From the NCBI GenBank assembly GCA_044070495.1, contig JBIPSI010000037.1, forward strand, positions 1 through 48,700: 48,700 nt of DNA, given 5' to 3'. The stretch's first letter is position 1; each line of letters begins with the position of its first letter. Positions 1 to 15,123 of the stretch are shown here, one piece after another. The position numbers were made by a program, and so were the translations under genes. A model generated the notes under the pieces. The model saw only the letters and a program-made list of their open reading frames with translations. It was not told the DNA's origin and did not search any database. Source of the stretch: Spirulina sp. GTDB lineage: Bacteria; Cyanobacteriota; Cyanobacteriia; Phormidesmidales; Phormidesmidaceae.

Positions 1-76
1 CGTACCAATACCGCGCCCCTTTCTCTTCAGGGTCGATCTCAGGGAGGTTCAGGTCTGAGGGGGGCTTACTCGTCAT
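1..76 (-). CDS. 5' end of a probable CDS running off the window (MTSKPPSDLNLPEIDPEEKGARYWY...)
   Basis: ATG at 76 opens a stop-free frame to the window edge; product unknown. Confidence 0.35.
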   Translation of the reverse strand, partial: MTSKPPSDLNLPEIDPEEKGARYWY

Positions 77-141
77 GCCCCTTACTCTAACGATTTTTGT
101 CCCATTCGCAATAGCCCCATCTTGTTGCGGTGACTAATTAC

Positions 142-363
142 TTAGACTTCAAACAGTGATCGGGGTAGCTGCGACTGTCGAATAATAGATTGTAGCGTTC
201 CTATTTTTAAGGCTTTGTGATTGGGGACAGGAACGGTAATGGTTGTCTCTTCTATGCGTTTTTGCATAACAATGTGGCTTCCCCGTTGTTGTACGTTCTG
301 GAATCCATGTTGTTCTAGAAGCTTGCATATTTCGCTTCCCGAAAAGATTCTAAGCTTGCCCAA
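142..363 (-). CDS. hicA: HicA family toxin
   Basis: (M)GKLRIFSGSEICKLLEQHGF..QRGSHIVM..VPVPNH..GTLQSIIRQ is typical HicA; TTG start at 363 overlaps the hicB end. Confidence 0.88.
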   Translation of the reverse strand: MGKLRIFSGSEICKLLEQHGFQNVQQRGSHIVMQKRIEETTITVPVPNHKALKIGTLQSIIRQSQLPRSLFEV

Positions 364-586
364 TGCTAACCTCCAGTCGGGTAATAAAGACTTCGGATTT
401 GAGACGACTGGCAATTTCGGAAGGATCGGCAACTTCAAAGAAAAGCTCGATGGCCTCGATTAGGTTAGTTCTGGCTTCTTCTACGGTATCGCCCTGGCTA
501 GCAATGTCTAGCTCAGGACAGAGGGAAACATAGCCTTCTTCTTCCCGTTCGATAACAGCCGTAAACTGATGTGTTTGTTTAATCAC
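350..586 (-). CDS. hicB: HicB family antitoxin (short form)
   Basis: FTAVIEREEEGYVSLCPELDIASQGDTVEEARTNLIEAIELF; GTG start with AGGAG upstream. Confidence 0.9.
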   Translation of the reverse strand: MIKQTHQFTAVIEREEEGYVSLCPELDIASQGDTVEEARTNLIEAIELFFEVADPSEIASRLKSEVFITRLEVSIGQA

Positions 587-620
587 TGTCTGAACTCCTT
601 ATGATTTGGGTGCATGGTAT

Positions 621-698
621 TTAGTCTTGCTGATGAAGATTTTTTAGATCTTCTTAAAGAATTTGAAGGCTATCAGGTAAATCGATGGTGATTTGCAT
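621..698 (-). pseudogene. Internally deleted UPF0175 antitoxin-like gene remnant
   Basis: First 13 codons MQITIDLPDSLQI match 2073..2330, joined out of frame to a tail EDLKNLHQQD* resembling its FEEDLHN end. Confidence 0.7.
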
Positions 699-701
699 GG
701 T

Positions 702-1112
702 TTAGGCTCCTGTGTCAGGGGGTTGGCTTAGGGTGTCAAGGTAGGTGATGGTTGCTTTTCCCCAGATGCTTTCTTCTAGGTAGTGCTGGGCGATATCGAT
801 GAGGGTAGCTTTGGTGGCTTGGAGGTGACGTTCGGGATTGAGCAGTTGTTGGCGAAGATTGGCCCACTTGGAGGAACTGCTGTGCTGGATTTCGGTGAAT
901 TCTACGTCAATAATTGCAAGGGCTTCGGATTCGGTGGCGACGTTAGGGTGCTGGCTTTGGAGGTGAGTTATCAGCACTTTTAGATCCATGATGGCCGCTT
1001 GAACTGATGGATCGGTGGCGTAGTTATGCTGTGCCTCGATGTAGGTATCGACCTGCTCGAAGATTTGTACTTTTTCGGCTTTGGGAAAGTTGTATTTTGA
1101 GGCTTCTGTCAT
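702..1112 (-). CDS. 136-aa hypothetical protein, copy B; N-terminus resembles the C-terminal motif of the upstream NACHT-HEAT protein
   Basis: Intact ORF; ATG overlaps the parE stop; 14 substitutions versus copy at 2334..2744. Confidence 0.8.
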   Translation of the reverse strand: MTEASKYNFPKAEKVQIFEQVDTYIEAQHNYATDPSVQAAIMDLKVLITHLQSQHPNVATESEALAIIDVEFTEIQHSSSSKWANLRQQLLNPERHLQATKATLIDIAQHYLEESIWGKATITYLDTLSQPPDTGA

Positions 1113-1432
1113 GGGGTTGGTTCTTGGTCAAGGATAAATTCTAGGTTTTGGGCACCGTGAAGGACTCGGATAATTTCTACGGTATCAGGATGAATTTGAT
1201 AGAAGATGATGTACTTGCTGAAGCCTTTGATAGGGTATTGGCGTATTTGAGCCAGCCTTGGAGATGTGAATCCACTGCGTCTACCAATTTCAGGAAGTTT
1301 GGCAATGCGTTGAAAGGTTGCCTCGGCAGCATAGAGAAAGCGATCACCCGCATCAAGGTTATCAAGACTGATGTAGGTAGCATGGGCGATCAGATCTTGA
1401 ATGACGATTGGGCGTTTGGTCAGGTTAGCCAT
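1109..1432 (-). CDS. parE: RelE/ParE family toxin
   Basis: QDLIAHATYISLDNLDAGDRF..P.IGR..KYIIFY..VEIIRVLHGAQNL. Confidence 0.88.
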   Translation of the reverse strand: MANLTKRPIVIQDLIAHATYISLDNLDAGDRFLYAAEATFQRIAKLPEIGRRSGFTSPRLAQIRQYPIKGFSKYIIFYQIHPDTVEIIRVLHGAQNLEFILDQEPTP

Positions 1433-1682
1433 TGTGGGATTGATCGCGTTGGTTTTGATGAACAGCGGCGCGGATGGACTCCCAATCGCTGGTGGTCATT
1501 GGTGTGGGTTCGCCGGAGTTAAGCCCTTCGAGAATGAGGGGTTCAAGATGGTCTTTGCGGGCTTTGTCTTGTTGGATGAGGGCTTGAATGTAGTCGTTGG
1601 CGGTGTTGTATTGGCCGGATGCAAGTTGCTCTTTGAGGTAAGCGGCTAGAGCCTCTGGGAGTGAGATGGTTAGATTAGTCAT
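1425..1682 (-). CDS. parD: ParD/CC2985-type RHH antitoxin
   Basis: LTISLPEALAAYLKEQLASGQY..A.DYIQALI..LEGLNSGEPTPMT; overlaps parE start. Confidence 0.85.
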   Translation of the reverse strand: MTNLTISLPEALAAYLKEQLASGQYNTANDYIQALIQQDKARKDHLEPLILEGLNSGEPTPMTTSDWESIRAAVHQNQRDQSHNG

Positions 1683-1705
1683 GGAGTTACTTGTATGGGT
1701 AAGGA

Positions 1706-1924
1706 CTAGGCAATTTCTCGACTAAAGACTTCGGATTTGAGGCGATTGGAAAATTCGGAAGGATCGGCAACTTCAAAGAAAAGCTCGATGGCCTCGATTA
1801 GGTTAGCCCTTGCTTCTTCTACAGTATCGCCCTGGCTAGCAATGTCTAGCTCAGGACAGAGGGAAACGTAACCTTCTTCTTCTCGTTCGATAACAGCCGT
1901 AAACTGATGGGTTTGTTTAATCAC
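1706..1924 (-). CDS. hicB: Second HicB antitoxin copy with replaced C-terminus and no cognate hicA
   Basis: Near-identical to 350..586 up to KSEVF, then SREIA*; GTG at 1924. Confidence 0.75.
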   Translation of the reverse strand: MIKQTHQFTAVIEREEEGYVSLCPELDIASQGDTVEEARANLIEAIELFFEVADPSEFSNRLKSEVFSREIA

Positions 1925-1958
1925 TGTCTGAACTCCTGACGCTGTAGATAAATAATAC

Positions 1959-2090
1959 TCATGCTCCTTCGCCAAAGGTTAGATCTTCTCTTACCTCATA
2001 GGGAAGTTGTGGTGGACGTTCTAGCGGGTTGCCATCCCAGCTACTAACGACGTTTTCAAAAAAACCAGGATGTCACCCTCGTGATTCGGG
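1959..2090 (-). pseudogene. C-terminal remnant of a further small antitoxin-like gene
   Basis: Reading through the TGA at 2073 gives PESRG*HPGFFENVVSSWDGNPLERPPQLPYEVREDL, resembling from memory the GW.PGFFE..W.G.PLERP.Q..YE.RE.L tail of small antitoxins that precede vapC; its stop overlaps an ATG giving MSIIYL. Confidence 0.55.
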
Positions 2091-2330
2091 GATGTTGTGA
2101 AGTTCAGGACGGATATTATGTAGGTCTTCTTCAAAGTCTGTGACATCGTAATGGATGCAAATACCTCGGCTACCAATAAGCTGCTGAAATTCCATTTGAT
2201 GCATTCCGGCAATCTGGCTGGCTGTGCCTAGGGTGACTCGCTCTTGCTGAAAGAGGGTTATGGCTAGTTCTGTCCGTAGGTCGGCTTCGGTGATTTGAAG
2301 GCTATCGGGTAAGTCGATGGTGATTTGCAT
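2073..2330 (-). CDS. UPF0175 family antitoxin-like protein
   Basis: ITEADLRTELAITLFQQERVTLGTASQIAGMHQMEFQQLIGSRGICIHYDVTDFEEDL. Confidence 0.85.
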   Translation of the reverse strand: MQITIDLPDSLQITEADLRTELAITLFQQERVTLGTASQIAGMHQMEFQQLIGSRGICIHYDVTDFEEDLHNIRPELHNIPESRG

Positions 2331-2333
2331 GGT

Positions 2334-2744
2334 TTAGGCTCCTTTTTCTGGAGGTTGGCTTAAGGTATCAAGGTAGGTGATGGTTGCCTTGCCCCAGATG
2401 CTTTCTTCTAGGTAGTGCTGGGCAATTTCGATGAGAGTAGCTTTGGTGGCTTGGAGGTGGCGTTTGGGATTAATCAGTTGTTGTCGCAGATTGGCCCACT
2501 TGGAGGAACTGCTGTGCTGAACTTCAGTAAATTCTGCGTCAATAATGGCGAGGGCTTCGGATTCGTTAGCGACGGTGGGGTGCTGGCTTTGGAGATGGGT
2601 AATCAACGCTTTTAGATCCATGATGGTTGCTTGCACCGATGGATCGGTGGCGTAGTTATGCTGGGCCTCAATGTAGGTATCGACCTGCTCAAAGATTTGG
2701 ACTTTTTCGGCTTTAGAGAAGTTGTATTTTGAGGTTTTTGTCAT
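2334..2744 (-). CDS. 136-aa hypothetical protein, copy A
   Basis: About 90% aa identical to 702..1112. Confidence 0.8.
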   Translation of the reverse strand: MTKTSKYNFSKAEKVQIFEQVDTYIEAQHNYATDPSVQATIMDLKALITHLQSQHPTVANESEALAIIDAEFTEVQHSSSSKWANLRQQLINPKRHLQATKATLIEIAQHYLEESIWGKATITYLDTLSQPPEKGA

Positions 2745-2746
2745 GG

Positions 2747-3148
2747 CTATATGTCCTGTTTAGGGGGTTCCCAGATGCGATGGATAGTGTAGGCATCCAT
2801 CTGGCTATCCTGGCTGACGAGGGATAGATTATGGTTGATGGATTGGGCAATGAGAATTCTGTCGAAGGGATCACGATGATGTAGGGGCAAGGAGAGATAA
2901 ATCTCTAGGGCTTTGAATGTGATAGGCAGTTGCGTGATGTCAAGGGATGTTAAATTAGGTTCGATGGTGCTAAATGGGGCAGAGAGGTCAAGTTTACCGA
3001 TGTTGGCTTTGATAGCAATTTCCCAGAGGGAGGCAATGCTGACAAAGACGGTGGGCGTGGTCTCAATTTGGGTGCGGGTGCTGGTGGGAAGTTGGGTGTC
3101 GTTGTCGAGAAACCAGATGATGGCGTGGGTATCAAGCAGGAGAGTCAT
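2747..3148 (-). CDS. vapC: VapC (PIN domain) toxin
   Basis: LLLDTHAIIW, SIASLWEIAIK, HHRDPFDRILIAQ motifs. Confidence 0.92.
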   Translation of the reverse strand: MTLLLDTHAIIWFLDNDTQLPTSTRTQIETTPTVFVSIASLWEIAIKANIGKLDLSAPFSTIEPNLTSLDITQLPITFKALEIYLSLPLHHRDPFDRILIAQSINHNLSLVSQDSQMDAYTIHRIWEPPKQDI

Positions 3149-3150
3149 GG

Positions 3151-3375
3151 CTACATGTAGTCTTTGAGATCTTCCAGGGGTGCATCAAAGTCGTCAGCCA
3201 TGGTGAACATGCCTTTCATGGTTCCGGCTTGGCGATATTGCTTAGGCGGTGTTTCAGAGGATAGATTTTTTGCATATTTGGCGGCTAGATATTCAGCGTA
3301 ATGAAGAATTTCTGTTTGCAGATTTGGAGAGAGTTTTTCAAGAGTTTCAATTAACTGACTCGATAACATTAGCAT
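3151..3375 (-). CDS. DUF2281 family antitoxin
   Basis: LEKLSPNLQTEILHYAEYL..RQAGTMKGMFTMADDFDAPLED; directly upstream of vapC. Confidence 0.82.
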   Translation of the reverse strand: MLMLSSQLIETLEKLSPNLQTEILHYAEYLAAKYAKNLSSETPPKQYRQAGTMKGMFTMADDFDAPLEDLKDYM

Positions 3376-3530
3376 TCTCCTTGGAGAGAATTTGAGTTTT
3401 CTTTGCGGGCCTTGTCTTGTTGAATGAGGGTTTGGATATAGTCGTTGGCAGTGTCGTATTGGCCGGATGCAAGTTGCTCTTTGAGGTAAGCGGCTAGAGC
3501 CTCTGGGAGTGAGATGGTTAGATTAGTCAT
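3369..3530 (-). pseudogene. Truncated ParD antitoxin copy (N-terminal RHH part only)
   Basis: First 43 codons nearly identical to 1425..1682, then unrelated ENSNSLQGEC*. Confidence 0.75.
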
Positions 3531-3573
3531 GGAGTTACCTTGATGGAGAAAGCTTGGATGATTGATTGATGGA

Positions 3574-6500
3574 CTATTGATCTGAGTCTGGGGGATGTTC
3601 ATAGTAATGTTCAACCCGCTCAAAGATTTTAACTTCAGGGGCATTAGGGAAAATATAGCTTATCGGTGCAGTTGTTGTTTCTGGAGTCTCTTTAGTCGTA
3701 TTTTGAGCGGTCATTGCTTCTTGCCAGATGCAGTAGTTATAGAACTTGCAGCGATTTTGAATAGTTGGAATCAGCCAAGAAAGCTGTGAAATATAGAATT
3801 TCCTATTTGCATCTATCAACTCAGGGAGTTTATTATTAATGTCCTGGAGAGAGCATTTTGCTAGAACAAGAGCAGCCCGATTTTGAAAATAGATATCCTT
3901 GGTATAGTTTTCTGGATTTATTAGAGCATCAATCAGTCGATTTAGCATTTCCAAATTCATTAATTCAGATAAAAAGTCTATAGTTTCGCTAGAAGACTCA
4001 TGGCCTGGGTCTACTAATGCTTCAAACAGGTTTGCCAAAACCTCCGACCCTACACTCCCTTGATGCTTAGCTAACCTACCTAATTCAATAGCTGCTCTTT
4101 GCCAATATAAGCATTTAGACTGAGTGATCTCAAGTAAAGGTTCTTTAAGGCTAAGTCTCGAAAGACTTTTCATGATTTCAACATGAGGATCAAAATTAGT
4201 AGGTGCTTTTAGTGAATCTAACAGAGTAGGAATAGCTTCTTTTTGATCAAATTTACTTAAGGAGCAAGCCGCGTTTATTCGGACATATCGATCAGAATCC
4301 TTATCAATAACGTTGAGCAAAGAAGGAATACAGTTTGAGTCACCAACAATACCAAGAACTACAGCCGCAGTTGAACGAATGCTTGATTCCTGATGGTTTT
4401 CTAACTCATTCATCATTCTTGGTAGAACTTTAGAGTCCTTCAGATGGCCTAAGACAATAGCTGCGCACCATGATATATGCCAGTTATTATGCTCAGCTAA
4501 ATTCCTCAGTTCTCCAAGATCTTTGGGATTATCTATACTTTTTAGTTTAATCAGTTGCTTAGCTGCTTCTGCCCGAAGATTTCTGCTGTCTTCGCCCAGT
4601 CGTTGGACTAAGAAGTGAATTGCGGTGTCAAATTTACTTGCACCTAAAATTTGAATTATTTGCTTCTGAAGGGTCTCATAAGGCTCCTGAGCAAATAACT
4701 GAATTAATTCCGGAATAAACAACTCATACCTTGAAGAGACTCCCAGAAGATTAAGAATATGGTTTCTTTGTCGAAATTCAGTAGAAGGAAGAGTGATCTT
4801 AGTATTCTTTAGCAGATTTATAATGTCAGCATCTACTTTCTCTTTTAAATCAGTTGAGTCGGGCACCTGGATTTCTCTTTCAGGCTCTTCCCAGTCAGCA
4901 GCTATTTTTCTATTTTCTTCATGTTGAGCATTCCTAAACTCTTCGAGTAGTTCTCGAATCATATTTTCGGCATCTAGCCTCATCAGAATTGGTGCTGCCT
5001 GGGTCATCATTAGTAATAATGTGCCATGCTCTTTTAACTTCTGACGCAAGAACTTAATGGCTAACTGTGGTGAAATATGACTAAGAGATTGAACACAGGT
5101 TGACCATGAAATTCCACTCTTGTCAGAGTCTCCCAATGACTTTTGAGAGAAAAGCTTTTCACTAATTTTACCTAGTCTTCTTGTTATAGTATCTATAGCA
5201 ACTTGATTGCTAGTTTCTCCTATATAAGATGTTGCAATTTCAACGACATCAATATTTTTATGTGTTAAGAATGATAAAAGCTCTGGGATAGCTAATTCTG
5301 ATCGTGTTTCACCCAGAAGCTCAACTTTTAACCTGTCTGTTACAGAAAGCTTGATTACTTCTCCTACAGTTGCTTCTTGAAAAAGAAGTGCCACTTCTCC
5401 AGCCAGCTTTGCTCCTAACCTTAAATCTATATCCATTGCCAGCTTTACCACTCGCAAAGCATGGTCTTTGTTATCCACCAATGCCAGCATCAGGGCAATG
5501 GGTTCTGTCCACTTCAATAGATTTAGGTAGTCACGCTTAAATTGAGCCTCATCCTCAAGTAACTCAGACAATTCCAGCTTCAGCAGCAGTGCTTCGGCGG
5601 CGTAGTATTCCTGGAAAAGCTGGTGGTGAAATTCAATTTCCCTAGGGTCTGTGGCAACTTGTAGCAGATGGTGTTCGAGCAGATCCTCCAGCCATTCCTT
5701 GGCTCGTTGTCCTGGGGCTTCTACCCGACCTGTTAAATAGGTTTCTAAAAGTCTTTCGGCTTGGCTACGATCTATCGTTAGCCAAGCTTCGGTGGGGCTG
5801 GTTGGGTCGCCCTGCAACATGCAAAAGGCAAGGTGTTGCAATAGCTCCGGCTTAAACCGCCGAAAGTCGTCAGAAACAGCCACTAGCCCCTTAAACTGGT
5901 CATACTTGGCATCAAATAGGCGAAACAGTTCACCCTTGCTCTGGGGAATTTGCCCAGTTGTACTGTCAAAGACATCACAGAGCATTTTGAGCAGCAGTGG
6001 GGTTTCAGCCACCTCTCGCAGGCGGTCTTTGAGCTGCCGCAGCAACGTATCAGCCTGGTTAGGCAATCCTCGCTGGGTCAGGTATTTGTTCACAAACTCC
6101 CGCATTTGGGGTTCGCTCAGGGGGCGCATTTCCAACCGCTTTTGGATGCCCAGGTCTCCACCCACCGCCAGATCTCGCGTGGTGAAGATCATCGGTGTGG
6201 TCGGGTTGTCTTCTCGAAAGGCTTGGAGCTTGCGCCGCTGCTGATCCGAAGGAATTTCGTTGACCCCATCGAGCAGTAACAGTAATCGGTCTTCCAGCAA
6301 CCAATCTTCCAGTTGCTCCGCACTAATCCGCACCTTCGCCCGCCGAAATTCTGCCAAGATTAGCTCAATAACGGGACGATCACCCTTAAGCTGCACATAC
6401 ACCGGAATGATCTCAGGTTGTTCCAGGGCGACTTCTGCCGCCTCCAATAGCAACCGCTTTAGCGTGGTAGATTTTCCTGAACCCGGTCGTCCTGCCAGCA

Positions 6501-6972
6501 AAAGATGTTGACGCTTTTCGCCCAGGGCATGTTTCTGTAACCCTTCCAAGACCGGAAAGCGCTCTACCTTTTGCTGAGTTATTTCAGGTGAGCGAGAAGC
6601 ATCTTCTGATGCTCGCCGCTCCACCGTTTCTGCCTCCAGCAGAATCAATACGTCAGTCTCGGTATAGAGGTCACGCACATCCTGATATCGGGAATCTTGG
6701 CGGAGGATAAATTCTAGGTACCCGGAAAAATCAAACGTAGGGGGGAAGCTGCCATTCTTCAATTTGTCCAAGTAATCCTGAATGGCGCTGAGTCCTGGCC
6801 CAATATAGCTATCGGCCCACTCCAGCAGGGCGCTAACCTGTTCGCCAACTTTGGCTGAGGTTCCGGCTCGGTTCATCCGGGGCATCGCCACAGCAATCAG
6901 TAGCCGCTCAAAGTCTGCTTGCGGCAGGCGGCTTAAATCATCAAATAGCCGAGCACGATCACCGGAATCCAT
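3574..6972 (-). CDS. NACHT (STAND) NTPase with small N-terminal helical domain and C-terminal HEAT repeats (NLR-like)
   Basis: Walker A GRPGSGKST, Walker B LLLLDGVNE, FTTR, TPLLL, FHHQLFQEYYAA; HEAT-like units (RSTAAVVLG, RINAACSLS); IQNRCKFYNY tail motif. Confidence 0.9.
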   Translation of the reverse strand: MDSGDRARLFDDLSRLPQADFERLLIAVAMPRMNRAGTSAKVGEQVSALLEWADSYIGPGLSAIQDYLDKLKNGSFPPTFDFSGYLEFILRQDSRYQDVRDLYTETDVLILLEAETVERRASEDASRSPEITQQKVERFPVLEGLQKHALGEKRQHLLLAGRPGSGKSTTLKRLLLEAAEVALEQPEIIPVYVQLKGDRPVIELILAEFRRAKVRISAEQLEDWLLEDRLLLLLDGVNEIPSDQQRRKLQAFREDNPTTPMIFTTRDLAVGGDLGIQKRLEMRPLSEPQMREFVNKYLTQRGLPNQADTLLRQLKDRLREVAETPLLLKMLCDVFDSTTGQIPQSKGELFRLFDAKYDQFKGLVAVSDDFRRFKPELLQHLAFCMLQGDPTSPTEAWLTIDRSQAERLLETYLTGRVEAPGQRAKEWLEDLLEHHLLQVATDPREIEFHHQLFQEYYAAEALLLKLELSELLEDEAQFKRDYLNLLKWTEPIALMLALVDNKDHALRVVKLAMDIDLRLGAKLAGEVALLFQEATVGEVIKLSVTDRLKVELLGETRSELAIPELLSFLTHKNIDVVEIATSYIGETSNQVAIDTITRRLGKISEKLFSQKSLGDSDKSGISWSTCVQSLSHISPQLAIKFLRQKLKEHGTLLLMMTQAAPILMRLDAENMIRELLEEFRNAQHEENRKIAADWEEPEREIQVPDSTDLKEKVDADIINLLKNTKITLPSTEFRQRNHILNLLGVSSRYELFIPELIQLFAQEPYETLQKQIIQILGASKFDTAIHFLVQRLGEDSRNLRAEAAKQLIKLKSIDNPKDLGELRNLAEHNNWHISWCAAIVLGHLKDSKVLPRMMNELENHQESSIRSTAAVVLGIVGDSNCIPSLLNVIDKDSDRYVRINAACSLSKFDQKEAIPTLLDSLKAPTNFDPHVEIMKSLSRLSLKEPLLEITQSKCLYWQRAAIELGRLAKHQGSVGSEVLANLFEALVDPGHESSSETIDFLSELMNLEMLNRLIDALINPENYTKDIYFQNRAALVLAKCSLQDINNKLPELIDANRKFYISQLSWLIPTIQNRCKFYNYCIWQEAMTAQNTTKETPETTTAPISYIFPNAPEVKIFERVEHYYEHPPDSDQ

Positions 6973-7092
6973 ACCAGATGCAGCGGGCGCGAGAAAATCG
7001 TAGACCTATCGCTATGGTAGCCGCAGTTCCCAAGAGATCCCAATGGCAAGGCAAGCAGCCCGACTTTTTCAAGAAACCGGGCGGCTGAGGGG

Positions 7093-9192
7093 TTAGGCGT
7101 TGATGCGTCCCGCCATCGGAGAACTGGGGCTGGCGGTAGTTTGGATGGGGATGCGTCCGGCGTGGTAGGCCAGTCGTCCGGCCTGGGTGGCGAGGCCCAT
7201 GGCGCGACCCATGGCCACGGGGTTTTGGGCCTTGGCGATGGCGGTGTTAATCAGCAGGGCATCGGCCCCCATTTCCATGGCCAGGGCGGCTTCGCTGGGG
7301 GTGCCAATCCCGGCATCCACCACCACGGGCACCTTGGCATTTTCGATGATGATTTGGATATTGGCGGCGTTGCGGATGCCCTGGCCAGAGCCAATCGGAG
7401 AACCGAGGGGCATCACCGTGGCGCAGCCCGCTTCCTCTAGGCGTTTGGCCAGCAGGGGGTCGGCGTTGATGTAGGGCAGCACCGCAAAGCCTTCCTTCAC
7501 CAACTGTTCCGCCGCCTCTAGGGTGCCGATGGGGTCGGGCAGCAGGTATTTGGCGTCGGGGATCACCTCTAGTTTGACGAAGTTGTTGTCTTCCTGGCCC
7601 AGCAGTTTGGCCATTTCTCGGCCCAGCCGCGCCACTCGGATGGCCTCTTCGGCGGTTTGGCATCCGGCGGTGTTGGGCAGCATCCAAATCTTCGACCAGT
7701 CCAGGGCTTCGGCGAGACCTTCGTGTCCAGGGGCATTGGTCTGCACCCGCCGCACCGCTACGGTGACAATCTCGCAACCGCTGGCGGCAATGCTCTGGCG
7801 CATGGTTTCAAAGTCGTCGTACTTGCCCGATCCGGTCATTAGGCGGGAGGCGAAGGAGCGTCCGGCGATGACCAGGGGATTGTCGGCGGGGATAGCGGCG
7901 GCGGCGGATTCGAGGGGAGTGGCGGTTAGGGTCATGGTGGGTTGGGATAGGGAGTCGGGAGTCGGGAGTGGGGAGTCGGGAATCGGGTAGGGGCGGGGTT
8001 TCCCCGTTCCCAAAACGTCGGGAGTCGGGTAGGGGCGGGGTTTCCCCGTTCCCAAAGCGTCAGGATTTGGGGGGCCGTTAAAACGCTGATAGGAGAAGGG
8101 GGGGAGGAGATCGGGGGTGCGTCCGGCGAGGTATTCGGCAATCAGGTGGGCGGTGATGGGGGCGAGGAGGATGCCGTTGCGGTAGTGTCCGGTGGCGAGG
8201 GTGAGGTTGGCGGCGGGGCCGGGGCCGAGCAGGGGCATTTCGTCCGGGGTGGCGGGTCGGTAGCCCCACCAGGTTTGTTCGAGGGTGCAGTCGGCCAGCC
8301 AGGGCAGTAGGGCGATGGCGTTGGCCAAGAGCTGGTTGACTCCGGCGGCGGTGTTGCCGGGGGCAAAGCCGACTTCCTGGCTGGTGGCCCCCAACACGAT
8401 GCGGCCATCCTGGCGGGGCACGATGTAGATGTTTTCGCCAAACAGCACCCGTTGCAGGGGTTGCACGGTGCCCAGGGCTGGGGGCACTCGCAAACTGGCC
8501 ATTTCGCCCTTTTTAGGGAAGACGGGCACAGGCAGCAGGTCGTAGCTCCAGGCTCCGGCGGCGAGGACGATGTGATCGGCCTGGAAGTCGCCAGCCTGGG
8601 CGGTGCAGACGCGCTCGATGCGGCCTTGGGATTGCCGCAATGCGGTGGCCCCAACCCCTTCGTGAATCGTCACCCCCAGATCGAGAACCGCAGCACGCAG
8701 GGCTTTCACGAGGGCTTGGTTATTCACTTGGCCATCTTCGGGATACCAAAAGGCACCTTGCACCCCAGCGCCTAGTCCGGGCTGGTAGTGGGCGAGGGCT
8801 GCGGCGGTTAACCATTGCCCTTGGGCAGTGTCCTGGGACACCTGATTCCCCTGGGATCGCTGATCCGTGAAATCAGATAAATCAGGCTCTTGGAAACGCG
8901 GAGCCAAAATGCCGCTGGGCCAATAGCCGACGGATTGCCCGGTGAGGGCTTCAATTTTCGCCACCCAGTCGGGATAGCGTTCCAAGCTGGCCAAGCACAG
9001 ATCCAGCATGGGGCCAAGGGGAATACCCTCGGCACGGGGGGCCAACATTCCGGCGGCGGCATGGCTGGCGGCGGCGGCAAAATCGCGGCTGAGGATGGCC
9101 ACGCTAGCCCCCTGCTGGCGCAGTTCTAGGGCAATGGCCAACCCCATCATGCCCCCGCCCACCACGAGGATGTCCTGTCCCGCCTGTGTCAT
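7093..9192 (-). CDS. thiG: Fused glycine oxidase ThiO / thiazole synthase ThiG (ThiG part from about 7935)
   Basis: [11 protein letters not shown] motif, [20 protein letters not shown]; then [27 protein letters not shown]. Confidence 0.93.
7950..8061. repeat. Heptamer STRR-like run (GGGAGTC) plus two REP-like direct repeats with 42-bp period in the thiO-thiG linker
   Basis: gggagtc/gggagtg/gggaatc from 7950; tcgggtaggggcggggtttccccgttcccaaa(a/g)cgtc at 7983 and 8025. Confidence 0.85.
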
Positions 9193-9261: not shown

Positions 9262-9412
9262 TATAGCGGTTCCCGATTGGGTGAGATAGACCTTTGCTGG
9301 GTTCTAGATCCCCCCAGAACCTAGCTGGCTCAGTTTTACTTTGTCACCCCCCTTGGTAAGGGGGGCAGGGGGGATCATCGCCATGTCCTTCACCTGTGGG
9401 AAATCCGCGATG
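9262..9412. mobile_element. About 150-bp MITE-like element, family 1, copy 1
   Basis: Colinear similarity with 39887..40036; TATAGCGG left end, degenerate right end; internal ccccctt/aaggggg hairpin. Confidence 0.75.
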
Positions 9413-9441
9413 AGTCCAGGCAGATAACCCCCGGTACGGCT

Positions 9442-9466
9442 GGGCGAGGAGACCTCACCCCTACGG
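9442..9466 (-). repeat. GTAG-type REP-like palindrome
   Basis: Reverse complement of the ccgtaggggcgaggtctcctcgccc unit at 39859 (one mismatch). Confidence 0.7.
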
Positions 9467-9566
9467 TTTAGCCGCGAATGCCTGTCCTGGGAACATTTGT
9501 CCCTGTGACATTTTAGGCCATAGGATCTAGACAAGCAGAAACTTGATCCCTTAAGGAACCGACCCT

Positions 9567-10526
9567 GTGAACATCGCTTTTATTATCGACCCCATCGAAC
9601 GCCTCGACCCCGGCCACGATACCAGCATCGCCTTGATGGAGGCGGCCCAGGAAAAAGGGCACCAGGTCTGGATCACCGAAGCACCCTTCCTGAGTGTGGT
9701 GGGTGGCAAGGCTTATGGGCTGTTGCGGCGGGTGGAACTGACCCCGGTGCAACTGGTGGATGGCCATTGGGTGGCGGATGAGCAATGGTACGAGGTGGAC
9801 GAGGTGGAGCAGCGTCCTCTGGAAGACATGGACGTGGTATTCATGCGGACGGATCCGCCTGTGACCGTGCCCTACCTCTACGCCACTTACATTTTGGACT
9901 ACATCGACCCAGCCAAAACTCGCGTGATCAACTCGCCCAAGGGCATCCGCGCCGCCAACGAAAAGATGTATGCCCTGCAATTCACAGAGGCCATTCCCGA
10001 AACCATCGTCAGCCAAAACAAAGCGGTGATTCGTGAAACTGTGGAACGCTGGGGCGCGGCGGTACTCAAGCCCCTAGGCGGCAAGGCGGGCGAGGGCATT
10101 TTGTTCCTGCAAGCGGGGGATCGCAACCTCAACTCCATGGTGGAAATCAGCACCCGCCAGGGCCGAGAACCTGTGATGATTCAAACCTACCTCCCCGCCG
10201 CCAAGGAGGGCGATAAGCGGATTATTCTGCTCAACGGCGAACCCATTGGTGCGGTGAATCGTATTCCTACGGGCAGCGAATTTCGCGGCAACATGGCCGT
10301 TGGCGGTCGGGTCGCCCAGGTAGACATCACCGACCGCGAGCAAGACATCTGCCACCAACTGGCCCCCACCCTGCGCCGAGACGGCCTCTACTTTGTGGGC
10401 ATCGACATCATCGGCGGCTACCTCACAGAGGTCAACGTCACCAGCCCCACGGGCATTCGGGAAATTGACCGTCTCAATAACGTGCGTTTGGGCCATCAGG
10501 TGATGGACTGGCTGGCGGAACAGTAG
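9567..10526 (+). CDS. gshB: Glutathione synthetase
   Basis: HDTSIALM, FMRTDPP, ANEK, KPLGGKAGEG, GDKRI, FRGNMAVGG, EVNVTSPTG. Confidence 0.96.
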   Translation: MNIAFIIDPIERLDPGHDTSIALMEAAQEKGHQVWITEAPFLSVVGGKAYGLLRRVELTPVQLVDGHWVADEQWYEVDEVEQRPLEDMDVVFMRTDPPVTVPYLYATYILDYIDPAKTRVINSPKGIRAANEKMYALQFTEAIPETIVSQNKAVIRETVERWGAAVLKPLGGKAGEGILFLQAGDRNLNSMVEISTRQGREPVMIQTYLPAAKEGDKRIILLNGEPIGAVNRIPTGSEFRGNMAVGGRVAQVDITDREQDICHQLAPTLRRDGLYFVGIDIIGGYLTEVNVTSPTGIREIDRLNNVRLGHQVMDWLAEQ

Positions 10527-10575
10527 CCTCCGGTCAAAGATCCCAGTGGGCTGGGGGTTGGGTGGAGAATACCCC

Positions 10576-10723
10576 CTGGCTGACTGACACAACGCCGAAA
10601 AGCCTTGACCCCTCGTAGGTTGGGTGGCGCGATAGCAGAACCCAACAAGCCCAAAATCCTCTGCGGGTGTTGGGTTCCGCTTCGCTGAACCCAACCTACT
10701 TTAGAGATGTGTCAGGCAATCAG
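10576..10723. mobile_element. 148-bp MITE, family 2, with 15-bp imperfect TIRs, 9-bp target duplication and internal REP doublet
   Basis: GAATACCCC at 10567-10575 and 10724-10732; ends ctggctgactgacac / gtgtcaggcaatcag (12/15 match); internal gtaggttggg...cccaacctac. Confidence 0.82.
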
Positions 10724-10963
10724 GAATACCCCTCTGTGACCCAAGGTAGACCCCTGGGATCTAGGGGGCTCAGCCACCGGGAGGAAGGATTAAATTAAAA
10801 AGTATTGCGTTTCCCTTTAGATTGAAAAAATAATCGCTTGAACCCGCATTTTGTGGCTCGAAGTCGCTACAATTCAGGCGTCCAGCGGTGCCCCTGCCGT
10901 CCAAATTGTTGTCGGCGACGGTGTGGCCGTTGGTGTTGTGTCGTTGCCTCAGGAGTGTCCCCG

Positions 10964-11971
10964 TTGAGCCAGTCATCAACTTCTTCCTCCAAGTCACTGC
11001 TATCTACCCCGGTTTTGATGGGGGCAGGGATCGCCTGGGGCGTTTTTAGCCTGCTTTTCTCGTTATTGTTTAGTCCCTCTGGGGGAAACGACCCCGCCGA
11101 TTGGTTTGTATTGGGCATTAACTTCCTCGAAACAGGCGCTTTTTTGATTGCCTCGTTGCTGTGCTTTCGCAACTGGCGCAGCCCCCAAATCGTCAGTGGA
11201 CGAACCGTGTGGTTTTGGATTGGCCTAGGGCTGATGATGTACGTCCTCGGCAACGTGTTCTTCTTTTTGTGGGGGAACGTCTGGGGGCTGGATCCAGCGG
11301 TTTCCTTCGGTGACTTTTTCTATATCCTCAGCTACGTGTTCCTGTCGGTGGGGATGTTTCAGGCGGTGCTACCCCGACGGCTTAACCTTGAACTTTCCCA
11401 GTGGTTGATTGTGTTGGGGATTGGCCTAGCCGGAATTTTGCTGTCTATTTTTGTGAAAGTGCAGTCCGTCGAAGCTGCCTTCCTGCCCCCCACAAGCCCC
11501 CCATCACCCGCTGCCTACCTGATCGCCCAGGCTCCTCCCGCCGATGGCGTTGCTCCCGATATCCCCGCTCCTGTGACGGCTCCCGAACCCGTGGCTTCCC
11601 CCGCAGAAGCGCCCTCCTCCGCTCCGGGCTGGGCGTTGCAAATTGATAATCTGCTCAGACCCTTTGAGGGCCTGGTGGGCTTTCTCTACCTATTTGGCGA
11701 CATTGTTTTGCTGATCATCGCCGGAACCCTGCTGGTGGCCTTTTGGGGCGGGCGGTTTTCCCAGTCCTGGAAGCTGATTGCCGTGGCGGCGGTTTTCCTT
11801 TACCTGGCCGATATGTTTTTCCTCTACGCCAACAACACCAATACCTACGTAGAGGGCGTAGTGTGGGAAGTCTTTTGGACGCTGTCGGCGGTCTTTTTCT
11901 GGCTGGGGGCCGTGGTAGAACATGCCGTTTCTGTAAATTCTCGCCGTAGTTCTCGCCGCCGAAGGGGGTAG
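10964..11971 (+). CDS. Multi-pass membrane protein of unknown function with Pro/Ala-rich loop
   Basis: Several hydrophobic helices; TTG at 10964 preceded by AGGAG chosen as start. Confidence 0.75.
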   Translation: MSQSSTSSSKSLLSTPVLMGAGIAWGVFSLLFSLLFSPSGGNDPADWFVLGINFLETGAFLIASLLCFRNWRSPQIVSGRTVWFWIGLGLMMYVLGNVFFFLWGNVWGLDPAVSFGDFFYILSYVFLSVGMFQAVLPRRLNLELSQWLIVLGIGLAGILLSIFVKVQSVEAAFLPPTSPPSPAAYLIAQAPPADGVAPDIPAPVTAPEPVASPAEAPSSAPGWALQIDNLLRPFEGLVGFLYLFGDIVLLIIAGTLLVAFWGGRFSQSWKLIAVAAVFLYLADMFFLYANNTNTYVEGVVWEVFWTLSAVFFWLGAVVEHAVSVNSRRSSRRRRG

Positions 11972-12014
11972 GGCGGCTTAAGATGTTAGATGGCATGATT
12001 GCGAGAACCCGTCT

Positions 12015-13142
12015 ATGGCACCCAAAAAGCTAACCGAGGCCGACAAAGTCGCTATCTTGGGGCTATATCGCCAACCCGAAGAGACCACCTCCACCTTGGC
12101 TGAGCGATACGGGGTGAGCAACAGTACTATCAGTCGTCTGCTTAAGGCCAGTCTGCCCGAAGCAGAATACAAGCGCTTGATCCAACAAAAGCGGGGATCC
12201 TCGGATCGAGGTTCAGATTCTGTAGCCGCGCAGCCCGTGGATGCCCCTGCGAGTGCGCCTGCCCCTGATCCTACCCCCAGTCACCCTGAGGACAGCCCTT
12301 CGGTCGATAGCGCCCCTGTTGCCAAGGTAGAAGGCAGCAAGGCACCTCCCATTCTCAAAAAACGCGGATCTACCCCTGAGGCCCCTGAGGCCACAGACGT
12401 AGCCACTCCCTCTAATCATCCAGCCGATACCGTTGCTAAGGGAAACCAGACAGCGGACTCCCCGGACGGCCAGGGCAAAACTCGACGGCGGCGATCCCGA
12501 TCTGCCAGTGCGGCCCCAGAGTCTTCCTCTGAGGATGCTACCCAACTCGCCCTTTCCACCGAAGCCACCGCCGAAGATAGCCCAGAGGAGGCCACGGAGG
12601 ATCGATCAACCCCGGCCCCATCCCGCCCAGAACTGATTAAGAAAGGGCCGATTAAGAAAGGATCGGTGGCCAAAGCTGACGTTCCCGATGCCGCCAGCGT
12701 AGCCTCAGACTGGGAGGACGAAGCCTCCGACCTAGACGACGACTACGCCGAGGACGATGACGACGACGAGGACGATGAGGATGCCTGGGACGGAGATACC
12801 TCGGAACTGGCTCCGCACCTAGAGGCCGTTGAAATTATTCCCCTCACTCCCAGCGATTTGCCCGCCCAGTGCTACTTAGTAGTGGAGCGGGTGTCTTCAG
12901 AGTTGGTGGTGTTGCCCCTCAAAACCTTTGCCAGCCTAGGCCAAATTCCCGAAGAAGAGGGGGATCTACGTACCCTGCCGGTGTTTGATAACCACCGGGT
13001 AGCCCGTCGGTTTTCCCGGCGCAACCAGCGGGTGATCAAAGTGCCCGATGGCAATCTACTGCAAACCACCCGTCCCTACCTCCAGGCCAAGGGCATTAGT
13101 CGGCTGCTCATCGATGGCCAAGTCTTTGCCTTGGAGGAATAG
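12015..13142 (+). CDS. Cyanobacterial protein with N-terminal HTH, long disordered acidic linker and globular C-terminal domain
   Basis: TTSTLAERYGVSNSTISRLLK HTH; D/E tract; LPVFDNHRVARRF. Confidence 0.8.
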   Translation: MAPKKLTEADKVAILGLYRQPEETTSTLAERYGVSNSTISRLLKASLPEAEYKRLIQQKRGSSDRGSDSVAAQPVDAPASAPAPDPTPSHPEDSPSVDSAPVAKVEGSKAPPILKKRGSTPEAPEATDVATPSNHPADTVAKGNQTADSPDGQGKTRRRRSRSASAAPESSSEDATQLALSTEATAEDSPEEATEDRSTPAPSRPELIKKGPIKKGSVAKADVPDAASVASDWEDEASDLDDDYAEDDDDDEDDEDAWDGDTSELAPHLEAVEIIPLTPSDLPAQCYLVVERVSSELVVLPLKTFASLGQIPEEEGDLRTLPVFDNHRVARRFSRRNQRVIKVPDGNLLQTTRPYLQAKGISRLLIDGQVFALEE

Positions 13143-13237
13143 GCGGAGGGCTGCCTAGGATGGGTTTGCCCCCCAACCCGACCGACCTGCCTTCGTCCAC
13201 GGAGACCACAAGCCCCTGCAACGGGAATGGAGGAAAC

Positions 13238-13849
13238 ATGGCCCTCAGTCCTCGCCTGGTTCAGCGTTTGTTGCGTTTGGCCCAGACTATCGATGCCCTG
13301 ATCGAACCCATCGGCAAGGCTCTCAACGGCCTAGTGCTGCTGTTGGTGGCCATCGGCTTCTATAACGTGATGGCTCGTTTTATTGGGCGCTGGGTGGGCA
13401 TGTCGCTGTCCTCCAACGCCCTGATTGAGCTGCAATGGTATTTATTTGCGCTCATTTTTTGGCTGAGCTTTCCCTACATCCTCAAGCATGGGGCCAACGT
13501 GCGGGTAGACTTTCTGGAATCCCGCTGGAGTAGCCAACGCAAGGCGCTGATTGGCTTTTGGGGCACCGTGCTGTTTCTAATCCCTTTCTGTCTGCTGGCC
13601 TTGGGGGTTACCTTTCACCCTGTCCTACAGTCCTGGGGACGCTTGCCCGATGGCAGTTGGGGCCGCTGGGAAGTCTCCGCCGATGCCGATGGTCTTCCTA
13701 GGGCACCGATTAAAACCATGGTGCTGGTGTCCTTTGGGTTGCTGCTGATTCAGGGGGTGGCCCAGGCCATCAAGTATTGGGCGGCTTGGGCTGGCCATAG
13801 CAGCGAGGCGGCAGCCCTAGTGGAATCGGAACTGCCGCCCCTGGAATAG
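13238..13849 (+). CDS. TRAP transporter small permease (DctQ family)
   Basis: ELQWYLFA, ANVRVDF, GLPRAPIKT; GGAGG before ATG 13238. Confidence 0.85.
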   Translation: MALSPRLVQRLLRLAQTIDALIEPIGKALNGLVLLLVAIGFYNVMARFIGRWVGMSLSSNALIELQWYLFALIFWLSFPYILKHGANVRVDFLESRWSSQRKALIGFWGTVLFLIPFCLLALGVTFHPVLQSWGRLPDGSWGRWEVSADADGLPRAPIKTMVLVSFGLLLIQGVAQAIKYWAAWAGHSSEAAALVESELPPLE

Positions 13850-13917
13850 GTAAATTCCCGTTGTTACGAGAATCATGATTTATAGCGCCGGTGGTGTCTT
13901 AACCCACTAACCGATGG

Positions 13918-15123
13918 CTAGACCGCCTCAAAGTCGATGGGGTAGTCCACCTTCTCCACCCAGGGCAGGCCAAACTCTCCAAGCTGGGCCAGGAAGGGAT
14001 CGGGGTTAAACTGCTCTACATTCCAGACACCCGCCCCGCTCCATTGGCCCGTGAGCACCATGGCGGCACCGAGCATGGCCGGAACCCCGGTGGTATAGGA
14101 TACGCCCTGGGCTCCGGTTTCGCGGTAGCAGGCGGCGTGGTCGCAGTTGTTGTAGATGAAGTAGGTGCGTTCTTGGCCATCCTTTACCCCTCGGATTTGG
14201 CAACCGATGGAGGTTTGGCCAGAGTACCCCTCACCGAGGGAGGCAGGTTCCGGCAGCACGGCTTTGAGGAACTGGAGGGGCACAATTTCCTTGCCTTCGT
14301 ACATCACCGGATCAATGCGGGTCATGCCAACGTTTTCCAGCACTCGCAGGTGGGTGAGGTAGTTTTCCGAGAAGGTCATCCAAAAGCGGGCGCGGCGGAG
14401 GGTGGGGAAGTGTTTGACGAGGGATTCCAACTCCTCATGGAAGAGTAGGTAGGATTCGCGAGGCCCCACCTCCGGGTAGTTCACCGGACGATGCACGGAG
14501 AGAGGATCGGTTTCGTGCCACTGTCCCTGCTCCCAAAAGCGCCCCCGCTGGGTAATTTCGCGAATGTTGATTTCGGGGTTGAAGTTGGTGGCAAAGGCCT
14601 TTCCATGGTCGCCAGCGTTGCAGTCCACAATGTCGAGGGTGTGGATTTCATCGAAGTGGTGCTTCACCCCATAGGCGGTGAATACTCCCGTCACACCAGG
14701 GTCAAAACCGCAGCCGAGGACGGCGGTGAGGCCCCGTTCCTTGAAGCGATCCTGGTAGGCCCATTGCCAACTGTATTCAAACTTGGCCACGTCGGGGGGC
14801 TCGTAGTTGGCGGTATCCAGATAATGCACCCCGGCTTCTAGGCAAGCCTCCATCAGGTGCAGATCCTGGTAGGGCAAGGCCACATTGATCAAAATGGCGG
14901 GCTGGAAGCTGCGGATCAACTCGACGGTCTCCGCCACATTATCGGCATCCACCGCTGCGGTTGAGAGACGCGGGGAGTTAATTCGCGCTGCAATGGCGTC
15001 GGCCTTCGCTTTGGTGCGACTGGCCAGCATCACCTCGGAGAAGACGCTATCGTTCTGCACACACTTGTGCGCCACCACATTGCCTACGCCGCCTGCCCCG
15101 ATGATTAGTACACGCTGTCTCAT
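13918..15123 (-). CDS. Saccharopine dehydrogenase family, probable carboxy(nor)spermidine dehydrogenase
   Basis: IGAGGVG, NVALPYQDL, YLDTANYEP, GCGFDPG, FATNFNPEINIRE, VSYTTGVPA. Confidence 0.88.
   Translation of the reverse strand: MRQRVLIIGAGGVGNVVAHKCVQNDSVFSEVMLASRTKAKADAIAARINSPRLSTAAVDADNVAETVELIRSFQPAILINVALPYQDLHLMEACLEAGVHYLDTANYEPPDVAKFEYSWQWAYQDRFKERGLTAVLGCGFDPGVTGVFTAYGVKHHFDEIHTLDIVDCNAGDHGKAFATNFNPEINIREITQRGRFWEQGQWHETDPLSVHRPVNYPEVGPRESYLLFHEELESLVKHFPTLRRARFWMTFSENYLTHLRVLENVGMTRIDPVMYEGKEIVPLQFLKAVLPEPASLGEGYSGQTSIGCQIRGVKDGQERTYFIYNNCDHAACYRETGAQGVSYTTGVPAMLGAAMVLTGQWSGAGVWNVEQFNPDPFLAQLGEFGLPWVEKVDYPIDFEAV

Follow-up and report, generated by a model that had tools for sequence, protein, structure and literature searches.

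How does a bacterial chromosome come to hold two tandem toxin-antitoxin (TA) units that repeat the same small genes in the same order and enclose different cargo between them? The locus that raises this question lies at the start of a 48,700-nucleotide (nt) stretch of DNA from Spirulina sp. (GenBank assembly GCA_044070495.1, contig JBIPSI010000037.1, here C37). This whole stretch, called the window, comprises the first 48.7 kb of the contig in a draft genome of 74 contigs, and the window start is the contig start. A first-pass annotation had described a mosaic locus in which three conserved anchors act as homology arms for swapping TA cargo. Our analysis partly supports that description: the mosaic is real, the mechanism can be put forward conditionally, and the nature assigned to the key anchor needed revision.

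On balance, we consider it probable that an NLR-like (NACHT-HEAT) operon of a Nodosilinea-type filamentous cyanobacterium has its downstream end here, with slots in which TA pairs lodge, exchange by recombination in the flanks, and two units of different descent. Gene families were assigned by profile searches against Pfam and NCBIfam. Every gene from 142 to 6972 lies on the minus strand, and the features are given below in gene direction; a prime marks an incomplete copy, p136 denotes the 136-amino-acid (aa) gene found in both units, and FACHB-1136 is Phormidium sp. FACHB-1136, a relative that carries a single unit.

3574..6972, minus strand: NACHT-HEAT STAND (NLR-like) NTPase, 1132 aa (Pfam NACHT E 2e-11, HEAT_2 E 1e-29)
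3611..3651, minus strand: C-terminal tail motif of the NTPase, third copy of a 41-nt repeat that also encodes the p136 N-terminus (76% identity to 2680-2720)
3369..3530, minus strand: parD' stub, about 44 first parD codons plus 10 unrelated codons (147-nt block, 93.2% identity to 1552-1698)
3151..3375, minus strand: DUF2281/VapB-type antitoxin (Pfam E 3e-24 to 1e-25; NCBIfam TA_VapB 89.9 bits)
2747..3148, minus strand: VapC (PIN) toxin (Pfam PIN E 2e-15; 84% nt identity to Nodosilinea EUL_358)
2334..2744, minus strand: p136_A, detached C-terminal module of the NTPase family (nothing in Pfam; fused homologs known)
2073..2330, minus strand: UPF0175 antitoxin-type gene, full length (Pfam E 3e-22)
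1706..1975, minus strand: hicB', 3'-truncated, no hicA behind it (94.4% identity to 385-599; homology stops at 1723)
1699..1724, no strand: junction of unit A and unit B (unit B homology to FACHB-1136 from 1724; hicB overlap 2 nt)
1425..1682, minus strand: parD antitoxin, intact (TIGR02606 47.7 bits, above cut-off; 97.6% nt identity to FACHB-1136)
1109..1432, minus strand: parE toxin (Pfam E 1e-13; 98.1% nt identity to FACHB-1136)
702..1112, minus strand: p136_B (90% aa identity to p136_A; 91.0% nt identity to FACHB-1136)
661..701, minus strand: UPF0175', a 41-nt 5' stub inside the 454-nt block (same stub present in FACHB-1136)
350..586, minus strand: hicB (HicB/UPF0150 sub-threshold only; 98.7% aa identity to FACHB-1136)
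142..438, minus strand: hicA toxin (Pfam E 1e-17, residues 34-91 of the listed frame; 99.5% nt identity to FACHB-1136 over 142-349)
1..141, no strand: end of a multi-copy repeat where the contig breaks (same 139-141 nt at ends of contigs C19, C41, and C69)

The gene names proposed in the first pass hold in these searches, with both HicB copies recovered by sub-threshold matches only (E 3e-4 to 5e-3). ParD with ParE, DUF2281/TA_VapB with PIN, and HicA all score above cut-offs, and they form adjacent small genes of known type II TA families. Unit A consists of parD'-DUF2281/vapC-p136-UPF0175-hicB' and unit B of parDE-p136-UPF0175'-hicBA; as had been described, unit A has a full UPF0175 gene and no hicA, and unit B has hicA and the 41-nt start of UPF0175. 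A gap of 97 nt (1976-2072) separates UPF0175 from hicB'. Three antitoxin-type genes of the array (parD', hicB', and UPF0175) have no toxin partner, and no remnant of DUF3368, the usual UPF0175 partner, was found in positions 1-4000. An Rfam scan of 1-7000 returned nothing; with PADLOC, p136 matched no defense family and the NTPase had weak HEAT and P-loop matches only.

The p136 protein matches no family in Pfam or NCBIfam, and its context comes from fused forms in other genomes. In Nostochopsis, a 1269-aa NACHT-HEAT protein ends, in frame, with p136. Matches to p136 in a large protein collection comprise 272 near-length clusters as well as 54 longer proteins; based on precomputed Pfam lists, the longer proteins include 23 with NACHT, 8 with Roc-COR, 2 with EAD8, and 12 with HEAT only. 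Fused forms occur in other cyanobacteria, and p136 is the C-terminal module of the NACHT-HEAT NTPase family to which the upstream gene belongs, detached here as a gene of its own. The key anchor is not the free-standing small gene it had been taken for, and the real left arm is the 3' end of the NTPase gene. Matches to p136 are present in 31 of 173 genomes of the order.

AlphaFold predicted five helices in p136 (residues 35-128) and an unstructured N-terminal stretch of 33 residues, all at low confidence. A fold search with the model (mean predicted local distance difference test score, pLDDT, of 59) retrieved generic helical bundles with a best Z of 7.1 and gave no assignment. In a model of the fused C-terminal region, the HEAT part is confident and the motif and p136 parts are of low confidence. 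TCAD2 (PF19971), a lead from an Atlas feature score of 0.90, was not among the 25 most-matched families in Pfam scans of 42 p136 members at E up to 1 (96 families matched overall). In eight genomes (loci L050-L054 and L112-L114), p136 lies within a protein of ~220 aa that has one or two HEAT repeats and stands behind separate HEAT and NACHT frames; this HEAT-p136 form is a second, conserved way of splitting the protein family. At L051, an IS4/5 transposase lies between the pieces of the split NTPase.

At split loci, the NTPase ends in a conserved tail of ~20 residues that resembles the N-terminus of p136. The tail is 52-81% identical in seven of nine relatives, and the HEAT part is 16-34% identical. 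Over 22 loci, which fall into at least six motif types, the tail and the p136 N-terminus change together: motif alignment scores were 40-90 for own pairs, with means of 17-35 for other types, and 1 of 720 permutations reached the observed sum when one representative per type was used (n = 6). In the commonest type, the tail copy and the p136 copy each keep their own conserved flavor across genera; both copies are therefore maintained and are not decaying. Fused forms contain the motif once, and Leptolyngbya boryana has two copies in tandem. The motif region has a pLDDT below 50 in the AlphaFold models, which neither show nor exclude amyloid formation.

These matched motifs allow a further reading, which we regard as less likely than not and put forward tentatively: the NACHT-HEAT NTPase and p136 may form a mirrored NLR-partner signaling pair, with co-evolving motifs of ~20 residues at the NLR C-terminus and the partner N-terminus that act homotypically and possibly in an amyloid-like manner, and TA pairs may have repeatedly colonized, or been recruited into, the gap between the two genes. 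If so, the TA pairs would be constant hitch-hikers of the system, or else its swappable killing modules. At one locus of filamentous cyanobacterium CCP5 (L049, 3647-4300), the NTPase ends in TIR_2 (E 1e-14) in place of the tail motif, and parDE and p136 still follow it.

The two units share three repeat blocks at the offsets given in the first pass; the blocks are slightly longer than had been claimed, and their identities (89-94%) are well above chance. The parD 5' block (1552-1698 and 3400-3546) spans 147 nt with 93.2% identity at an offset of 1848, the block of p136 and the UPF0175 start (661-1114 and 2293-2746) spans 454 nt with 89.4% identity at an offset of 1632, and the hicB block (385-599 and 1723-1937) spans 215 nt with 94.4% identity at an offset of 1338. 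Between p136_A and p136_B there are 32 synonymous and 14 nonsynonymous changes, in agreement with the 14 differences among 136 residues counted earlier. The synonymous divergence (dS) of the two copies is 0.49, and the ratio of nonsynonymous to synonymous divergence (dN/dS), a check that the first pass had proposed, is 0.09, indicating that both copies are kept by selection. Rather than to one another, p136_A is nearer to the copy of FACHB-1136 (dS 0.32), and p136_B to a third copy on contig C41 of this genome (dS 0.27) and to the copies in genomes G071 and G091 (dS 0.32). Across G066, G071, G091, and C41, dS to p136 ranges from 0.27 to 0.39, which is below the divergence between the units. 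The two copies are not mutual closest relatives, and the earlier statement that the array is not a simple recent duplication stands.

The third copy (L003, C41 positions 128-920) lies behind a PIN gene that lacks its 5' part. Its N-terminal motif has diverged, its reading frame contains a TAG, and it adjoins the same 141-nt repeat as the window start. Judging by this copy, the array may once have been longer, or it may have been broken up by the repeat element.

Alignment to FACHB-1136 separated the histories of the two units. From 1724 to 134, the window aligns without gaps to the single FACHB-1136 unit at 95.4% identity over 1591 nt, whereas the unit A cargo is about 85% identical to that of Nodosilinea EUL_358; in this respect, the description of a mosaic locus was confirmed. 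Divergence within unit B is uneven: dS to FACHB-1136 is 0.073 for parD, 0.056 for parE, 0.389 for p136, 0.210 for hicB (about 95% nt identity), and 0.000 for hicA. Outside p136, the stretch is 94-99.5% identical to FACHB-1136, the first 42 nt excepted, and with those 42 nt left out, mismatches number 37 of 411 in p136 versus 26 of 1138 in the rest (Fisher p 4e-8). The flanking thiO-thiG gene has a dS of 0.223 to FACHB-1136 (92.8% identical DNA), and a thiO-thiG flank is common to loci L042, L005, and L043. The NTPases that occupy the same place in the window and in FACHB-1136 are ~40% identical in aa sequence, and outside the unit B stretch, nucleotide similarity to FACHB-1136 returns only in the final ~180 nt of the NTPase gene, so the sensor gene itself appears from these alignments to be either replaced or hypervariable. 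Within the FACHB-1136 copy of p136, A-like and B-like segments alternate. Its parD 5' block is A-like at the 5' edge (3 sites) and B-like at six of the seven other informative sites.

We tallied the gene directly upstream of p136 in 60 copies, three from this genome and the others from loci elsewhere. A TA-type gene from one of nine families is present in 35 of them: parE (11 copies), RelE-type PF06296 (9), DUF2281-vapC (5), other PIN (2), DUF3368 (2), UPF0175 alone (2), DUF4926 (2), HepT (1), and HicA (1). In 11 further copies, p136 is fused to the NTPase; in 8, the protein is split within the HEAT repeats; and in 6, nothing recognizable lies upstream. Fourteen loci or copies were left out of both the tally and the p136 tree: L012 and L061 (p136 truncated), L008 (near-duplicate of L048), the distant second p136-like copy of L055, and ten in which the upstream gene is unclear or the contig ends (L057, L060, L075, L090, L096, L099, L101, L102, L110, and L117). 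On the tree, the upstream state changes at least 26 times (minimum possible 11, shuffled mean 41.9), and one clade of six copies with 100% support contains four cargo types. UPF0175, alone or with DUF3368, often follows p136 or the fused gene. In relatives, these anchors enclose cargo of other kinds, as expected of a hotspot, and a single fixed arrangement, which the first pass had named as evidence against its reading, was not what we found. The array of Leptolyngbya sp. PCC 6406 (G104, L055) is of another kind, with p136-like genes and UPF0175-DUF3368 pairs in alternation.

Past replacements have left traces. In FACHB-1136, hicBA is bracketed by a 44-nt direct repeat (37/44 matching) made up of the final p136 codons and the initial codons of UPF0175, and the UPF0175 stub is one of its arms; contigs of two other samples likewise contain hicA followed by the same p136-end/UPF0175-start sequence. 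Copies of the 41-nt motif flank the cargo in the window. Loci L012 and L061 share the arrangement of a parD' stub with DUF2281-vapC, and L043 retains a scrap of the UPF0175 start and the middle of DUF2281 ahead of MNT-HepT. Displaced genes always leave their 5' part, and the start of p136 is always retained, often 0-15 nt from the toxin stop codon.

We propose that type II TA pairs lodge and are replaced in two slots, one between the NTPase gene and p136 and the other immediately behind p136. Turnover would need no site-specific recombinase and would proceed through the conserved flanks, by recombination and gene conversion there; these flanks would be the final ~180 nt of the NTPase gene, p136, the p136-end/UPF0175-start sequence, and the 5' part of parD. 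Each exchange would leave direct repeats of flank sequence around the cargo and 5' stubs of the displaced antitoxin genes, and the two units of different descent that lie in tandem here would have been joined once by illegitimate recombination. Observed are the anatomy of the locus, its fused and split counterparts, the diversity of cargo, the unevenness of divergence, and the junction itself; we infer the recombination route, the order of events, and the standing of the TA pairs as passengers rather than parts of the NTPase system. The homology arms suggested in the first pass keep some support in this form (flanking direct repeats, antitoxin stubs, and uneven dS), and the mosaic looks like the product of ordinary recombination at conserved flanks rather than of an integron.

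Several results weigh against this reading. The pairwise homoplasy index (PHI) test within p136 was not significant in either of two sets (p 0.57 with 6 sequences and 32 informative sites; p 0.15 with 5 sequences and 29 sites). The cargo-flanking motif copies in the window are only 76% alike in DNA, too low for a recombination substrate today. The background divergence is based on a single flanking gene, thiO-thiG, and the p136 tree is a quick tree of 136 columns in which 27 of 57 inner branches are unresolved. The motif types were grouped by eye, and types 2 and 6 cross-match at scores equal to or above those of their own pairs. Locus L043 (G071) keeps p136 beside thiO-thiG though dynamin-like GTPase genes replace the NTPase, indicating that p136 is not strictly tied to this NTPase; over positions 9400-14750 of that locus, Dynamin_N, DO-GTPase2, and two unannotated genes stand in place of the NTPase, and MNT-HepT followed by an intact p136 remain. 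Finally, among the 32 listed of 172 contig pieces from public runs, none spans the joint at 1699-1724.

That joint bears on two other explanations. The alignment of unit B to FACHB-1136 starts at 1724, which is the TAG stop codon of the FACHB-1136 NTPase gene, and the junction joins the 3'-cut hicB' to DNA that starts at this stop, with a microhomology of 2 nt. The units therefore meet at a single illegitimate junction and are not linked through an anchor. Could the joint be the work of an assembler that fused two strains of a mixed sample, each with one unit? The array does sit at a contig edge of a 74-contig draft, and 120 of 148 contig ends have a terminal 100-mer in common with another place; overlaps of ~141 nt at contig ends are the behavior of a de Bruijn graph, probably with k near 141. 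Even the richest of the public runs covers just 0.33 of the sampled words, at a depth of 2-4. We nevertheless find such a chimera very improbable. The longest exact runs common to the block copies are 83, 32, and 53 nt, below the contig-end overlaps, and the hicB'|parD joint is unique sequence; collapse or mis-joining of the graph through repeats is unlikely on these grounds, and some molecule must carry the junction. Contigs of run X1 contain exact pieces of both units at similar depth (2-4), and the UPF0175-hicB adjacency of unit A recurs in another sample (X10, piece 1871-2237) at 95% identity. An old tandem duplication in place is more plausible than a chimera, and still rather unlikely. 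In that scenario, a one-unit ancestor (parDE-p136-UPF0175-hicBA) was doubled by unequal crossing-over and diverged, one copy swapping parD 3'-parE for DUF2281-vapC and the other losing most of UPF0175; the blocks had no special role, and one-unit relatives lost the other unit. It predicts the single novel junction and the common order of all three blocks, both of which we observe, and the parD pattern of FACHB-1136 is what a deletion between the parD copies of a window-like array would leave, although this hint consists of 10 informative sites. It does not predict that the p136 copies are closer to those of other genomes than to each other, and it requires at least two more replacements and, in addition, that every relative examined has lost a unit; the same two-unit array is absent from all 30 other genomes of the order with a p136 match, and the array of G104 is different. 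It also leaves unexplained that dS for parDE and hicA (0-0.07) lies under the 0.22 of the flank.

A third alternative concerns function rather than origin, namely, that the NLR-like system uses the TA pairs as interchangeable effector modules, which act on a signal from the NTPase and p136, and that selection keeps a toxin gene between these two. The packing on one strand is tight (the parE stop and p136_B start overlap by 4 nt, 2 nt separate vapC from p136, and ~40 nt lie between the NTPase and parD'), and a weak scan of 1-7200 detected no terminator-like site on that strand, although this promoter and terminator scan returned fewer sites than shuffled sequences and is uninformative. The range of nine TA families upstream of p136 resembles modular effector positions of defense systems, the TIR_2 domain in L049 occupies the place of the tail motif, and p136 is also fused to an EAD8 protein; EAD8 is classed as effector-recruiting by Kaur et al. 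2020. On the other side, the pairs are complete and self-contained, with near-copies away from p136 in this genome (DUF2281-vapC on C1 and hicB on C30), the slot is empty in 6 of the 60 copies and absent in the 11 fused forms, and the stubs and scraps indicate turnover in which no single toxin is conserved. We consider this role unlikely. Passenger turnover at conserved flanks remains our preferred reading.

Several known systems resemble this arrangement in part. Vibrio superintegrons, which are chromosomal integrons, carry TA cassettes. Like them, the locus is a one-directional array with different TA pairs in equivalent positions between repeated elements, and its cargo is interchangeable. 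The repeated elements here, in contrast, are protein-coding genes under purifying selection and not recombination sites. No tyrosine recombinase is encoded on contig C37 (PF00589 has 5 matches in the genome, none of them there), and no attC-like inverted repeats of at least 14 nt within 120 nt were found in 1-3700, nor any of at least 30 nt in 1-6000, although a degenerate attC could escape such scans. The first-pass comparison to an integron, in outcome but with no integrase or attC, is apt for the outcome and agrees with these scans; the likeness goes no further. Polymorphic toxin systems (CDI and Rhs) reportedly carry orphan toxin/immunity cassettes behind a large toxin gene. There, too, a large gene is said to be followed by tandem cassettes that each start with a short copy of its conserved 3' region, with recombination reshuffling the rest. 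In those systems, however, the variable part is the C-terminal toxin tip, whereas here the C-terminal module p136 is constant and the whole TA operon varies; a Pfam scan of the locus found no secretion-related domains, unlike CDI and Rhs loci. Polymorphic toxins are the subject of Zhang et al. 2012 (PMC3482391).

Phage and satellite defense hotspots hold diverse cargo between conserved flanks. SXT/R391 elements have variable hotspots between conserved backbone genes (PMC4147863). The window locus shares with such hotspots conserved flanking genes, diverse cargo across relatives, and an exchange attributed to homologous recombination in the flanks; it differs in being chromosomal, beside thiO-thiG and within one defense-type operon, and in having as flanks the two halves of one protein family.

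The closest parallel to the NTPase and p136 is the NLR-effector pairs with matched amyloid signaling motifs (BASS) of filamentous bacteria, as presented in the Dyrka et al. preprint (10.1101/2020.01.06.895854), and a related Bab/Agp NLR-effector amyloid-motif pair is outlined in a second preprint (10.1101/2024.11.07.622273). As in the BASS pairs, a NACHT-type NTPase with a repeat domain stands next to a small helical protein, a short homologous motif (~20-25 residues) at their termini co-varies between loci, and all-in-one (fused) and two-gene forms coexist in filamentous cyanobacteria. Unlike in the canonical arrangement, where the motif lies at the NLR N-terminus and the effector C-terminus, it lies here at the NTPase C-terminus and the p136 N-terminus; p136 also matches no Pfam family, the Bell-type domain included, and amyloid behavior is putative. 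The term "toxin-antitoxin" occurs 0 times in the main text of the Dyrka et al. preprint, and a search of a limited literature collection retrieved no account of an NLR-like gene separated from the gene of its partner by TA pairs.

TA clusters and mosaic defense islands are already familiar. What this locus contributes is a precise, recurrent insertion site, with nine TA families at one site within a defense-type operon, and a context for the uncharacterized p136 family as a terminal module of NLR-like, ROCO, and EAD8 proteins in filamentous cyanobacteria. It also exposes the matched motif pair of the NTPase tail and p136, which is directly testable as a signaling link, and it offers a natural system in which to ask whether TA pairs are passengers, stabilizers, or effectors of immune sensors.

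The repeat at positions 1-141 ends 0-8 nt past the hicA stop codon. In run X1, this 141-nt sequence lies in a 1580-nt contig with a depth of 13.6, about 4-6 times that of the array, and it is probably part of a mobile element whose body is outside the assembly. Elsewhere in this genome, contig C1 carries a vapC paralog with 83% nt identity to the window vapC, and at least nine DUF3368 homologs are present.

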